From Octopus vulgaris (taxonomy: Eukaryota): a stretch of DNA of 64,000 bases. The DNA lies in the NCBI GenBank assembly GCA_951406725.2, contig OX597821.1, forward strand, positions 54,436,001 to 54,500,000. The letters run 5' to 3'. The notes under the pieces are model-generated. The model saw only the letters and a list, made by a program, of their open reading frames with translations, was not told the DNA's origin and did no database searches. Of this stretch, positions 7,186-53,640 are shown piece after piece (within the stretch, counting starts at the first letter, position 1; each line of letters begins with the position of its first letter). Both the position numbers and the translations under genes were made by a program.

Positions 7186-7340
7186 GAAATTTATAGAAAA
7201 ACAAAAGATGAAGACAAGTGTATGAACAAGAACCATGTGTATTAGTTTGACGCTTGGGAAAATGAAAAAGCCATTTACGTTTCAAGCCTACACTCTTCAA
7301 CAGAGAGGAATAAGAGAAAATAAAAAAAGAGGGAGTCTAT
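7186..7340 (-). mobile_element. Short PLE-end-like repeat with CUGUNGA hammerhead-like motif, copy 1
   Basis: Homologous to 9260-9446 and 17651-17820 ('aaaacaaaagacgaagacaggtg...acgtttcgagcctacgctcttcnacagaaagg'). Confidence 0.6.
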
Positions 7341-7455
7341 ACATATATATATATATACACACACATATATATATATACATATAAACTTATATATAAGCAA
7401 TAAAAAGTCAGGAGGTATGAGTGAGGAAAATACTTATTCGACCTCTTGACATCTT

Positions 7456-7616
7456 TAGGATTATAGCTGTTTCATAGCATTCTTCATGTAGTAATAATTT
7501 CAGTGTAGAATAGAATTATGTTTACATGGTTGCATTAATATGCATACTATGCATTATGCAAAGAACTGCATATTAACAAATCAATGCAGATAAACAAAGC
7601 TAGGTCATCAGATCAC
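7456..7616 (-). ncRNA. Hammerhead ribozyme-like motif with about 130-nt stem II insert (slightly decayed)
   Basis: Minus strand: gat-CTGATGA-cc-tagc...gcta-t-GAAA-cagcta-TA-atc. Stem I is gat/atc. Stem III is a one-mismatch version of the cagctg palindrome seen at 30120 and 33348. Confidence 0.5.
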
Positions 7617-7877
7617 CAAAACATCATGGTTACACCAATAATTCAACTCTAAAATAGATACAGTATCTGCTGAATCCATATCATAAACCATGCATGTATG
7701 CACACATACACACATACATATATACATGTATGCATGCATACATACATGAATACATACATACATACATACATACATACATACATACATACATACATACATA
7801 CATACATACATATAATCATCAGCAAATCATAAATCCAAGTCAAAAACACACTCTAAGTTATAGAGCAGAAGAGTTTT

Positions 7878-8172
7878 TAGATAAAGATAGTTATGGCCAG
7901 TTTACAGGATTACTCAGGGTTCTGTGTATATAAAGTGCTTGTCATTACATATGTCTCATCAGACCTTAATGACCAGTAGCCTATAACCTCTCTTCAAAGT
8001 GGAGGAAGAAAAGACCTTCAAAAGTTGGCCACAGAGCCTTTTTTCCTTCCCCTTCAAAGAGAGGTTATAGGCCACTAGCCATTAATATTTGATGGCATGT
8101 ATGTAAAGCCAAGCACTTTATGGACGTGAAAACCTTGTTAATCCTATGAACCATCCATAACTATCTTTAACT
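7878..8172. repeat. About 295-bp fold-back element adjoining (TA)n
   Basis: Outer arms taaagatagttatgg/ccataactatcttta; middle arms taaagtgcttg/caagcacttta; inner arms cctataacctctctt/aagagaggttatagg. Confidence 0.75.
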
Positions 8173-8379
8173 AAATAAATAAATATATATAAATACATAT
8201 ATATGTGTTTATATATATATATATATATATATTTATATGCATATACTATATACATATATATATATATATATATAAATATATATATATATATATATATATT
8301 TATATACATATACTATATACATATATATATACTATACATACATACATACAAATATATATATATATACATACATATATAT

Positions 8380-49299: not shown

Positions 49300-50760
49300 A
49301 TGCTGCTTGGTCGTTTGCAGAGCAGCCATACTGCTTATGACTATAATTCTGCCAAGCACAACCTTATCAAGGTTATCAAGATAATGAACTTCATATTTGG
49401 TTATTTTAATTTAATAGCAGACTTGATAAGAGTGATGAGAAACATGTACTGAATGTGCAATCCAATGAAATCAGAGAAACACATACAATACTTCATCCAC
49501 CACATGCTGGGTACAACCAAAGGGAGAGGATCAGAGTGTACAAAGGAGGCAGGGAAAAATAGTAGACCATCATAGAGAATGACATTAATGGGACCTGCCT
49601 GCTATGTAGGAGTAAATTCTTGAATACCATAAAAGAACTAGGAAGAAGATAGGTAAGGCCAAAAAATGCAAGAATGCCATGTTTGTCGTGGCTACCACTT
49701 GAGGTGCTGGCATATCCTTTTAGGAAAACCTTAGATAAGATGAATCTATGACTTACAGTAGTAGAAAGTCCAGGGAACTGCATAAAATCCCTGGTCTGCA
49801 GAACATACCTGTTTGAAAGAAACCCCTGTATGAACAGGAACTCTATAGTGTGTAGAATAAACTCACAGATAAATTGTAAAACTAGGAACGCAGTCTATAG
49901 TAAAAGGTGTACTTAGGGATAGTGCAGAAACAAAACAATGGCCTATATTGGAGAGACAATACATAGCATAGGTGAGCAGGTAAGTGAACATTGGCTCGAG
50001 CTCAAGGTTGGGAAAATCTTGTCAGTGATCTACAAACATGCTAAATTAGAACATGGAGGCTTAGTTGATAATATAGATGTTAGGAACTTACTAACACATA
50101 GAACAGACACAGAACTCAGACAGATTATAGAGCCCATACACATAGCAGAAGATAGACTAAATTGCAACAGTAAACATGAATAAAGTAATAACACATCCCC
50201 CCACTCCACCACACTACACAAACCTGACAACTAAAGAAAGAATGAGGAAAAATAAATATATGACACAGGTACTAACAGTATAATATACAAACTTTTATAC
50301 ATGCACACAAGGCACACATACACATATTAAAGACAGAATGAGAAAATAAAGAAAGAAAGAAGTAAAAGACATGAGTACAAAAAACAGTGCAATATACAAA
50401 CCCATATACATGAACACATGAGACACATGATAAACATATGGACACACACACACATGCACATATTCACAGGCATAAACACATACACAGATAGAGATACACA
50501 CCACAAAAAGACAAAATGGAATAGGCAGGGTAAGAGGAAACACATGGGACAGAGTTGTTAAAGAGATCACAGAATGTGTAAGGACAGAACTTTGACACAC
50601 AAGTAAACTAAGAGAAATAATATTAATAAAACTAAAATGAAGATCAAATAAAAAAAAATAGAAGATCAAATAAATAAATAGGCAGAAGATGGCCATACCC
50701 GAGTATAGCAATATCTTGTTTCAACATTTTCACATCCAGAATTTTACAAAACAAATACAT
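49300..50760 (+). mobile_element. Old Penelope-like element relic (different family): GIY-YIG and 3' end
   Basis: NCKTRNAVY...C...AYIGETIHSIGEQVSEH...SVIYKHAKLEHG...RQIIEPIHI...LN. Confidence 0.7.
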
Positions 50761-52534
50761 AAACATATATTTACATGCATACACATATGCATGCATGTGT
50801 GTGTGTGTGTGTTTATTTGTGTTGCCAGATTCTTGATGTGAAATGTATACACACACACATACACACACACACATATACATACATGTATATACGTATATAG
50901 TCCTGTATATATATATATATATATATATATATATTATATATATTTACATACATACATAATATATATATATATATATATATATATATATATATATATATAT
51001 ATGTATGTATATATATATATATATATATATATATATATATATATATACATGTATGTACACACAATATATATATATATATATATATATATATATATATATA
51101 TATATATATATATATATATATGTATGTATGTTTATATATATATATATATATATATATATATATATATATATATACATTTATATATATTAGTAGAACATAC
51201 AGAAGCAGAAATTGATACATGTGTTTCAAAAGTTTAGTAACATTCTGTCTCTTCCAGTTCAAAGTAATATCTAGTATGTATATGATAATATATCTGTATA
51301 TGTTCGCTCTCACATACAGAATAACATCCACAGACACTCACACTCATATATACATGTGCTTGCATGAAAATAGATGTATGTACATGTGTGTGTGTGTGTG
51401 TGTACGTGCACATGCGTGTCTGTGTGTTATCATTATTTGTCACTCTTATTTCTAGATTGTATATGCAACTATTTTGGTTGCTGGCATCTTAGCCTCTTAA
51501 CTTAGAGGTCAGGCTATCTTCAATATTCTTTAATTCGATTTCATACCTTATAATTTCAGTCTGAACTTAAATAGTTTACCATGAACCTTGCTCTATTTGA
51601 GATTTTATTCTTCAGATTTCACATTATTTGGCAGTCAAGCATTAAGCTTAGCTTAGCAAAGATCAGTTTATTTAAATACTAATGGGTTTGTTTGGGAACA
51701 ACAAACATACATTCACCTAAGTTTAAAACACTCTTTTCACTCTTGTTAACCCTTAATTCCTCCCTCTTGGAAATGGATGTATATTTAGCATTTAAACTGA
51801 ATAGAATCATGAGTTGTGCCAAAGATAAAAACAGGATTAGCTGTATAAACTTGTCAGTAATGTATGTACTTGTGAATGTGTTTGCTCGTATATACATACA
51901 AACACATACATACATAATACATACACACACACATATTATCTTTTACTTGTTTCAGGCATTAAACTATGGCCATGCTTGAGCACCACTTAGGAGAATTTTT
52001 TAATCAAACAAACCAACCCTCGTGCTTACTTCTTTTAAGCTTGATAAGTTGTGCAGACATAAGCACACCAGCACCAGCTGTTGAGTGATGGTGGCAGAGA
52101 AACACTCACACACACACACACACACACACACAACGGGCTTCTTTCAGTTTCCGTCTACCAAATCCTCTCACAAGTGGTTGGCCCGAGGCTAGAATAGAAG
52201 ACCCTTGCTCAAGGTGCTATACAATGGGACTGAACTTGAACCATATAGTTGGAAAGCAAGCTTCTTACCACACAGCCACACTTGTATACATGAGTACTCT
52301 TTTTGTCATTGGATTTTTGCCCATGCTGGAGCATTACCACCTTGGAAGGTTTTAGTTGAACAAATCAGCCCCAATTCTCATTTTTATGTCTGGTACTTAT
52401 TCTATCAGTTTCCTCAGCTGAACTGATAATTTACAGGGATGAAAACAAACCAACACTGGTTGTCAAATGGTTGGGGGACAAACATAGACGAAGAGGCAAC
52501 ACACATGTATAATGAACTTTTACAATTTCCATCT

Positions 52535-52850
52535 ACAGATTGAAATAGATGTATATTATAAGCCATACAATTCAAGACAATATTTACTTTTACTTCACAT
52601 CACCCAAAACCATATGAGACTCAATAACCCATACCATCTAGCAGAAAGAATATGCACTAGTGTATTAAATTTTAAAACATCCAAAAGAAAACACTAAACA
52701 AACTAAAAGACATTTCGATTTGAAGGCATTATCTGCTATCATAAAGAATGTAACTGAAAGAGTAGAGGCCAATAATATTAGAGATTTAAGATCAGTAGAA
52801 ATCAAAACAGAAATAAATGTTTTACCAAACATTTCAGGGCCTGGTTTAAA
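52535..52850 (+). mobile_element. Decayed Penelope-like RT thumb fragment
   Basis: IEIDVYYKPYNSRQYLL..SHHP.....PYHLAERICT resembles the PLE 'TDxYxKPTxxxQYLxxxSxHP...IPYxxAxRI' motif. Confidence 0.65.
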
Positions 52851-53502
52851 ACTACAACCTGGCATCTTGGATTCCCTCAGTTGCAAACATTAAAATTAGG
52901 TTTCTGGTTTGAGGATGTCTTTCTTCTTTTAACTAATTTAAATGGCCCTGTAATGGATTTATGGGCACAGCCTTGCCTCATAACAAAAAAAAGATTTTTT
53001 AAATGTACTGTAGTAGCAGCCCTTTACAGACTGAATTGAATTTTCACTGGCTTCAGCTTCACCCAGTTATCATTTTAGGTGAATAAAATAATGCCAGTGA
53101 AGTACCAGAATTGATTTTGGCACATGTGTGGTGGTTTTAAAGTAGGTTCTGGCACTCTGGTGATTTAACTAGCTATAGCCATTACAATGTAATTAAAAAT
53201 AATATCCAAATTTTTTCATATATTGCCTTAATATTTTAATGGATCATTTGAAATAAGATTTCACTGTTGTTTACTGTAATGAATAAACAACATGCAGTAA
53301 ATAAATAGCGTCATAGTTATTCAGACAAAACTAGGTAAGATATTAGCAGCATTTCTTTCTTGCTTAGCCCAGGTTTGTAGCCTCCAGACATACAACTACA
53401 TAGCCACACACACACACCTATTTATATATACATGTACATGTATAGTTATATATACATAAAAATAAGAGCATTGTAGTTTGCTTGAAGCATTTTAGTACAA
53501 AA

Positions 53503-53640
53503 GTAGAAAAGGAAAATATATAAAACCTTCAACAATGCAGAAAGTTTTATATTTCACATGCCTGAGGATGGGCCTTTGCACCTGAAATATAAAAATGTCT
53601 GCATTGTTGGAAGCTTTCTATGTTTTACTTTTCTTTTTAT
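53503..53640 (+). repeat. Short fold-back with decayed hammerhead-like loop
   Basis: Arms caacaatgcaga..ttttatatttca / tgaaatataaaa..tctgcattgttg; centre CTGAGGA-tgggc-cttt-gcacc-t-GAAA-ta-TA. Confidence 0.5.

Follow-up and report, generated by a model that had tools for sequence, protein, structure and literature searches.

The closest described relatives of the sequences analysed here are the insertion units of endonuclease-bearing (EN+) Penelope-like elements (PLEs) of the Neptune/Nematis and Penelope/Poseidon types (PMC4209133, PMC8557442). According to the accessible parts of these sources, such units carry a minimal type I hammerhead motif with a bulged base before stem II and a palindromic stem III, and they are 5'-truncated. 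An inverted, 5'-truncated, shorter copy at the 5' end, a one-sided tail of 30-40 bp and a bias towards AT-rich or (TA)n targets have been described (PMC8557442), and minimal hammerheads lying on opposite strands, 100-700 bp apart, have previously been ascribed to truncated PLEs (PMC4209133). In experiments with purified PLE protein, both strands of the target were cut and extended, starting at two neighbouring sites on the RNA, and hammerhead cleavage was dispensable for this reaction (PMC11167929). We analysed a 64,000-nucleotide stretch of the Octopus vulgaris genome (contig OX597821.1, positions 54,436,001 to 54,500,000 of the forward strand; hereafter the window), in which an earlier note had listed 13 dispersed hammerhead motifs and suggested that they may in general be retrozyme-like, non-autonomous parasites of PLEs. 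The motifs are probably for the most part known PLE debris, together with one real non-autonomous family of unusual build, designated family G.

We consider it likely that the motifs represent the pseudo-long terminal repeat (pLTR) 3' ends of about nine PLE families, with fold-backs formed at the DNA level in the course of insertion, and that family G is a short interspersed element (SINE) with a transfer RNA (tRNA)-like head, copied in trans by PLE proteins. Family G is a non-autonomous, dispersed, high-copy element of about 290 bp with fixed ends. At this locus, its tRNA-like head is followed by a linker, a body and a hammerhead-bearing 3' end, and an inverted 5'-truncated copy abuts the head (Table 1). 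The head matches tRNA invariants at 18 of 18 positions, the highest value recorded across the window, and none of 60 shuffles reached 18. The longest ATG frame spans 43 aa, and the sense strand contains no T4 run before its end, a weak observation with about one run expected. Exact-pattern scans for the family returned nothing in viral, metagenome or prokaryote collections, blastn found no match in plasmids, and the head matched no phage tRNA gene.

The abundance and ends of family G were examined in contigs of 4 of 24 runs (X1, X2, X4 and X22), aligned to positions 40150-40750 at 80% likeness; 25,863, 26,226, 20,763 and 3,010 contigs aligned, respectively. In X1, the summed contig depth was 0.2-5.4 million over most of the element compared to 39-101 in the flanks, with dips where the window copy has decayed and a value of 0 at a skipped linker repeat. 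At one 3' end (40669/40671), where depth changes abruptly, 216 and 277 X1 contigs exit into 255-nt flanks with an agreement of 0.4; the departure of these 493 contigs into unlike flanks suggests that at least hundreds of loci share this end. A second 3' end lies about 10 nt beyond 40297 (190 X2 and 209 X4 contigs), about 27 bp from the other. Among the best 24 of 1,068 rows, loose ends were found at 40544 (141, 195, 153 and 44 contigs in the four runs) and at 40363 (180, 250, 170 and 36 contigs). In the consensus sequences of these ends, stem I, a 5-bp stem II preceded by a bulged A, and GAAA are all restored; the hammerhead of the family is thus intact, and it is kept intact in most contigs among the matches listed. 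Among the best 15 of 149 rows of joints, the head end (40540-40544) was joined, in other loci, to inverted tails of different length at six junctions (40615, 40632, 40634, 40637, 40643 and 40646). Head and body were bridged by two of the matches listed, X2 record 11 (40388-40517) and an X1 joint (40409-40486). Both outer junctions of the locus were present in X1 contigs (records 1 and 8) and are thus not assembly artefacts. As a separate observation, about 10 further letters follow the head end (40540-40550) in X22 contigs and make up a short palindrome at the 5' end, which may favour fold-back joins in this position. X22, presumably an RNA run, was not taken as a sign of expression.

The general plan of a tRNA-derived SINE is a head, a body and a tail derived from its partner. 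Family G shares this three-part plan and the abundance of such elements, but its tail is PLE-like, with a hammerhead, and not like that of a long interspersed element (LINE). When compared with the EN+ PLE insertion units, the window showed the same motif architecture, 5' truncation, inverted shorter copies, one-sided tails, AT/(TA)n targets and spacing of opposite-strand motif pairs, and families B, D, E and H showed no difference. Family G departs from those units in its own tRNA-like head and fixed 5' end, and families A and B in constant core variants (A6U in 3/3 copies of A, at 7272-7307, 9335-9370 and 17740-17775; U4C in 3/3 copies of B, at 10661, 22444 and 24025). The Schistosoma SMalpha/Sjalpha elements, in the accessible part of their review (PMC6765202), resemble family G in being non-coding and high-copy and in having a polymerase III-type promoter followed by a hammerhead; they are, however, often tandem repeats from which cleavage frees monomers, whereas family G is dispersed and has a minimal PLE-type motif with PLE-type inverted ends and tail. 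Animal non-LTR retrozymes (PMC7229834; bioRxiv 10.64898/2026.07.22.740005) are likewise non-autonomous, measure 150-450 bp, carry a type I hammerhead and have been proposed to derive from PLE pLTRs; they are defined by tandem units and circular RNA, and the accessible parts of their descriptions mention no tRNA head. The arrangement required of a retrozyme, at least two head-to-tail hammerhead units, was found for no family within the window, and in the contigs the 3' ends of family G run into unlike flanks. Short non-autonomous PLEs (Chlamydomonas MRC1, PMC8557442; Heliconius, PMC6685494) also lack an open reading frame (ORF) and have PLE ends, but, unlike family G, they are credited with no tRNA-derived head in the portions of these descriptions that are accessible.

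The accessible text of the literature searched, including PMC8967140, PMC6962438, PMC10294476 and PMC7761336, contained no tRNA-headed SINE mobilised by PLEs, Repbase, Dfam and older cephalopod SINE papers lying outside this search; the family may already be catalogued. Tentatively, and with doubt slightly outweighing belief, we propose that family G is a new kind of SINE, in which a tRNA head is combined with a PLE pseudo-LTR bearing an intact hammerhead and which has reached thousands of copies via PLE proteins, and that family C adds a 360-bp retrozyme-like monomer. The idea of a non-autonomous PLE parasite stands for family G as far as its fixed length, lack of an ORF and high copy number are concerned, but the element is of a dispersed, tRNA-headed SINE type and not a tandem, circle-forming retrozyme. 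The earlier note had set its proposal against the possibility that every family is a truncation product; family G, with its fixed length, does not bear this out.

The window is 35% GC and rich in dispersed repeats, and short tandem repeats account for 8,417 masked bases. A hammerhead-like string was present at 13/13 of the listed coordinates, and the motifs are real as a set; only 1/13 is strictly canonical, and most are decayed. The architecture is that of a minimal type I hammerhead throughout the families. A strict descriptor (CUGANGA core plus stems I-III) was passed by a single motif (21917-21949), with a shuffle mean of 0.06 and 6 of 100 shuffles reaching 1. Two looser descriptors were chosen after the motifs had been seen, so that the shuffle controls flatter their results: the relaxed version (U4C or A6U allowed, long stem II allowed, stem I of at least 4, stem II of at least 3) gave 4 matches (shuffle mean 0.09; 0/100 shuffles reached 4), and the one-mismatch version gave 7 matches at a score of at least 6 (shuffle mean 1.02, maximum 5; 0/100 reached 7). 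Six of these 7 were on the earlier list, and the extra one lies at 482-516 on the minus strand.

Seven listed motifs failed when taken alone (7272, 7456, 9335, 10661, 33314, 40544 and 53562). For four of these, support comes from better relatives, namely 17740 for 7272 and 9335, 22444/24025 for 10661, and the genome contigs for 40544. Motif 53562 is missing the 5' arm of stem I, motif 33314 has a mismatch adjoining the core, and motif 7456, with its 110-nt loop II, is the weakest of the 13. Apart from B2, C, E, D1 and the G family, whose hammerheads are intact, the motifs are decayed or incomplete. Nine families (A-I) were distinguished, which bears out the claim of at least seven unrelated sequence contexts, and the frequent palindromes described for stem III were recovered as exact palindromes in 7/13 motifs. 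The inverted copy of the unit's own end, reported for most units, was present for 8/13 (10661, 20032, 21913, 22444, 24025, 30048, 40544 and 53562); an inverted copy of the own 3' end was absent for 7272, 9335, 17740, 7456 and 33314. No hammerhead appeared in Rfam among the matches listed for the window (150 of 343) or among all 6 matches for 40200-40700, and RNAfold z-scores, computed for nine motifs or heads, stayed between -1.3 and +0.8 and were unremarkable. Matches to Rfam microRNAs in the window were set aside as microsatellite noise.

The inverted arms of the fold-backs measure 18, 84, about 127, 176, 194 and 361 bp, in addition to that of family H. The distance between the inner ends of the arms and the predicted cleavage site is 8-253 nt (the end lying further downstream in B1), and 0/7 lie exactly at the site, so an origin of the arm 5' ends by hammerhead cleavage was rejected. 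Transitions predicted to yield G-U pairs showed no strand preference, with 18 on the hammerhead strand and 19 on the other over C, D2, E and H, and 4 and 6, respectively, in family G; in the absence of a G-U bias, selected RNA hairpins were rejected as well. The extra tail is confined to the inverted arm in B1, C and G, and the sense copy is without it. The fold-backs match the published structure of PLE insertions and not a selected hairpin RNA. With arms of variable length that start off the cleavage site and show no G-U bias, and with family B joined to a PLE ORF, the retrozyme-like reading of the fold-backs is unsupported in general. [quoted passage not shown] Each cDNA would halt at a random point, and the pair would be joined head to head, yielding an inverted shorter copy with a tail on one side only.

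To judge from its predicted ORF, family B represents a PLE 3' end. The ORF is contiguous with the hammerhead region at 2/2 loci and has the layout of a PLE ORF, a reverse transcriptase (RT) thumb together with a GIY-YIG domain at the C-terminus, upstream of the pLTR. The three family-B motifs contradict the description of the units as ORF-less: they lie at the end of a PLE ORF with GIY-YIG or of an inverted copy of that ORF. In copy 1, the ORF (9519-10468) is a 5'-truncated GIY-YIG PLE with one frameshift; in copy 2, it comprises 291 aa with a Cys-rich linker and GIY-YIG. It is 36-50% identical to 14 longer relatives, and the Pfam GIY-YIG match (E 0.0033) falls below the curated cut-off; truncation has removed the RT core itself. 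None of 467 candidate relatives in metagenome contigs was confirmed. The arms of copy 2 are nearly identical (257/258, inverted arm versus 23828-24085). The 245-bp inverted copy of the left flank between them (22704-22948) resembles templated sequence inserted between two head-to-head cDNAs where a young PLE insertion was joined by repair, as would be expected of such a join; an independent fixed-length element at this position was discarded because the segment reproduces flanking sequence from either side of the family-C arm. Three members make up family D. One of them lies downstream of a GIY-YIG-like remnant (49929-50180), for which searches gave no homologue and no relevant Pfam match. Decayed plus-strand pieces of PLE ORFs, split by other repeats, occur near F (31072-31499 and 32565-32654) and near H (52533-52732 and 53712-53816) and are not contiguous with those families.

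Table 1 Features of the hammerhead-bearing families in the window.
Feature	Position	Strand	Description
Family G, tRNA-like head, fixed 5' end	40474-40544	-	A-box and B-box at standard tRNA spacing
Family G, linker to 3' end	40281-40473	-	(AAT)n linker and body, then decayed hammerhead (cleavage site near 40356) and short 3' end; full-length copy
Family G, inverted 5'-truncated copy	40544-40670	+	Hammerhead 40544-40579, then 3' region with about 27-bp extra tail
Family B, copy 1	9501-10761	+	18-bp inverted tail end, PLE ORF, 3' end carrying hammerhead 10661-10721
Family B, copy 2, inverted arm	22343-22703	-	PLE 3' end, tail, hammerhead 22450-22500 (U4C core)
Inverted copy of left flank (22049-22293) between family-B arms	22704-22948	-	245 bp, 244/245 identical
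Family B, copy 2	22953-24085	+	5'-truncated PLE ORF, 3' end with hammerhead 24031-24081
Family D, absent from earlier list	233-600	-	Hammerhead 482-516, passes tolerant descriptor without core mismatch
Family D	19878-20244	+	Hammerhead 20035-20068, 84-bp inverted 3' copy (19878-19961)
Family D	49929-50764	+	GIY-YIG-like remnant (49929-50180), then very decayed hammerhead about 50550-50600, absent from earlier list
Family A, copy 1, solo	7186-7340	-	Decayed hammerhead 7272-7307
Family A, copy 2, solo	9261-9442	-	Decayed hammerhead 9335-9370
Family A, copy 3, solo	17651-17820	-	Hammerhead 17744-17771, A6U core, one change in GAAA
Family C	21742-22291	-	360-bp sense unit (22101-21742) and inverted 3' copy with tail (22096-22291)
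Family E	29834-30225	+	Hammerhead 30054-30127 (long stem II), inverted 5'-truncated copy 29834-30009, 77% identical
Family F	33165-33430	+	Hammerhead-like motif 33314-33361, without inverted 3' copy
Family H	53505-53634	+	Hammerhead 53562-53595, truncated in stem I, with inverted copy
Family I	7456-7616	-	110-nt loop II; no relative or inverted copy within window

Families besides G, with C foremost and A as another case, could be true retrozyme-like parasites, that is, fixed ORF-less monomers that self-cleave, circularise and are reinserted by PLEs, an explanation that we find unlikely but worth keeping in view. Family C runs in the order tail, core, hammerhead and 3' region, and its 360-bp unit begins and finishes at the tail boundary, as a circular or tandem template would yield. 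It also holds the sole strict hammerhead of the window, with an 8-bp stem III that is self-pairing (-14.9 kcal/mol as a duplex), and on this layout it may be a 360-bp retrozyme-like monomer. Alternatively, the unit may consist of an older copy with a newer, related one nested inside it, PLEs being prone to insert next to themselves (PMC6765202, accessible part), and the difference in identity between its long and tail arms fits a nested second insertion as well. Family A comprises three ORF-less copies of 150-180 bp with a common 3' end, but with three different 5' ends. The proposal that animal retrozymes are PLE derivatives (bioRxiv 10.64898/2026.07.22.740005, in its accessible part) speaks for such parasites, while the lack of a head-to-tail repeat of any family within the window and the lack of G-U bias in the arms speak against them.

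That everything, including family G, is truncation debris of autonomous PLEs, with the head being a piece of a neighbouring unrelated SINE or part of a longer PLE, appears quite improbable. Dispersed minimal hammerheads have been ascribed to truncated PLEs, as noted above, and tRNA-headed repeats are dense enough (14 window sites at 15/18 or better) to make chance neighbours common. However, in other contigs the same head end is linked to the inverted G tail at no fewer than six different junctions, head and body are spanned by two independent records, the X1 depth of the head (0.8-2.1 million) is of the same order as that of the body and hammerhead (0.9-2.7 million), and the consensus is lost about 10 letters beyond the head end (X22, 21 contigs, agreement 0.51). 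We regard as very improbable a third account, in which family G is a tRNA-derived SINE that acquired a PLE end once and is mobilised by a LINE (e.g. RTE), its inversions arising by twin priming. SINEs normally depend on LINEs (PMC6685494, accessible part). Repeats at 13060-14335 and 25259-26019 were read as putative LINE-like RT remnants, and a PLE partner of family G was not found within the window. The 5' inversions of LINEs, however, flip the 5' part without duplicating it, whereas the inverted piece of family G duplicates the 3' end; moreover, the element has no poly(A) or simple-repeat tail and has two alternative 3' ends, as in PLEs.

Several points weigh against our preferred reading of PLE 3' ends and a PLE-copied SINE. 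ARAGORN and Rfam do not call the head of family G a tRNA, and the test of invariant tRNA positions was drawn up after the head had been seen. No autonomous partner was found for family G, which matches nothing else within the window, and its tail of about 27 bp is slightly under the published 30-40 bp. The abundance data come from contigs and not from reads, and summed depth does not equal copy number. No position where many molecules start or stop was listed, but the ends of RNAs are not visible in contigs. The joints and loose ends are those of the best rows given above; joints below 95% likeness or with a side shorter than 30 letters may stem from repeats, and most sides here measured 20-42 letters. 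Contigs also break at the (AAT)n linker, which left only two head-body bridges among the matches listed. Beyond family G, no PLE ORF was tied to families A, C, E, F, H and I within the window, the GIY-YIG assignment in family D is a lead only, and family C defies one simple event, with long arms 83% and tail arms 98% identical (P ~0.012).

In the mechanism proposed for family G, the internal A and B boxes would direct RNA polymerase III to produce an RNA of about 290 nt. Its hammerhead and tail region, borrowed from a PLE, would be bound by a PLE protein, which would copy the RNA by the two-ended reaction outlined above. If the RNA were cleaved, at about 190 nt from the 5' end, the promoter would be severed from the start of reverse transcription, so full-length copies would derive from uncleaved RNA. 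The hammerhead may then serve mainly as a recognition structure or a dimer-dependent brake, and not as a circle-maker.

The role of the hammerhead in PLEs is left open in the accessible parts of PMC7761336, PMC8557442 and PMC11167929. As a short element with a putative promoter of its own, family G lacks a tandem precursor on which cleavage could act, and its full-length template would be lost if cut. Because the motif is kept although cleavage would harm the template, family G offers a compact test of a protein-binding fold versus a working ribozyme. If PLE proteins indeed mobilise this family, PLEs would join the partners of SINEs as a non-LINE partner, and a minimal substrate of 290 nt would show which RNA features PLE proteins need and what purpose the hammerhead serves. 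The other motifs call for caution, in that fold-back units with hammerheads in such genomes are usually by-products of insertion.

Some further structures were recorded in the window. A 300-bp fold-back at 7876-8175, whose 138-bp arms are 75% identical and retain vestiges of a very decayed hammerhead core, is probably a tenth family. A near-perfect 63-bp hairpin at 33020-33082, about 230 bp upstream of motif F, is possibly a snap-back at a 5' truncation. An unclassified 528-bp repeat with near-identical ends and 94% identity occurs at 16100-16622 and 61512-62036, and a short degenerate tandem array with units of about 50 bp occupies 46884-47190.

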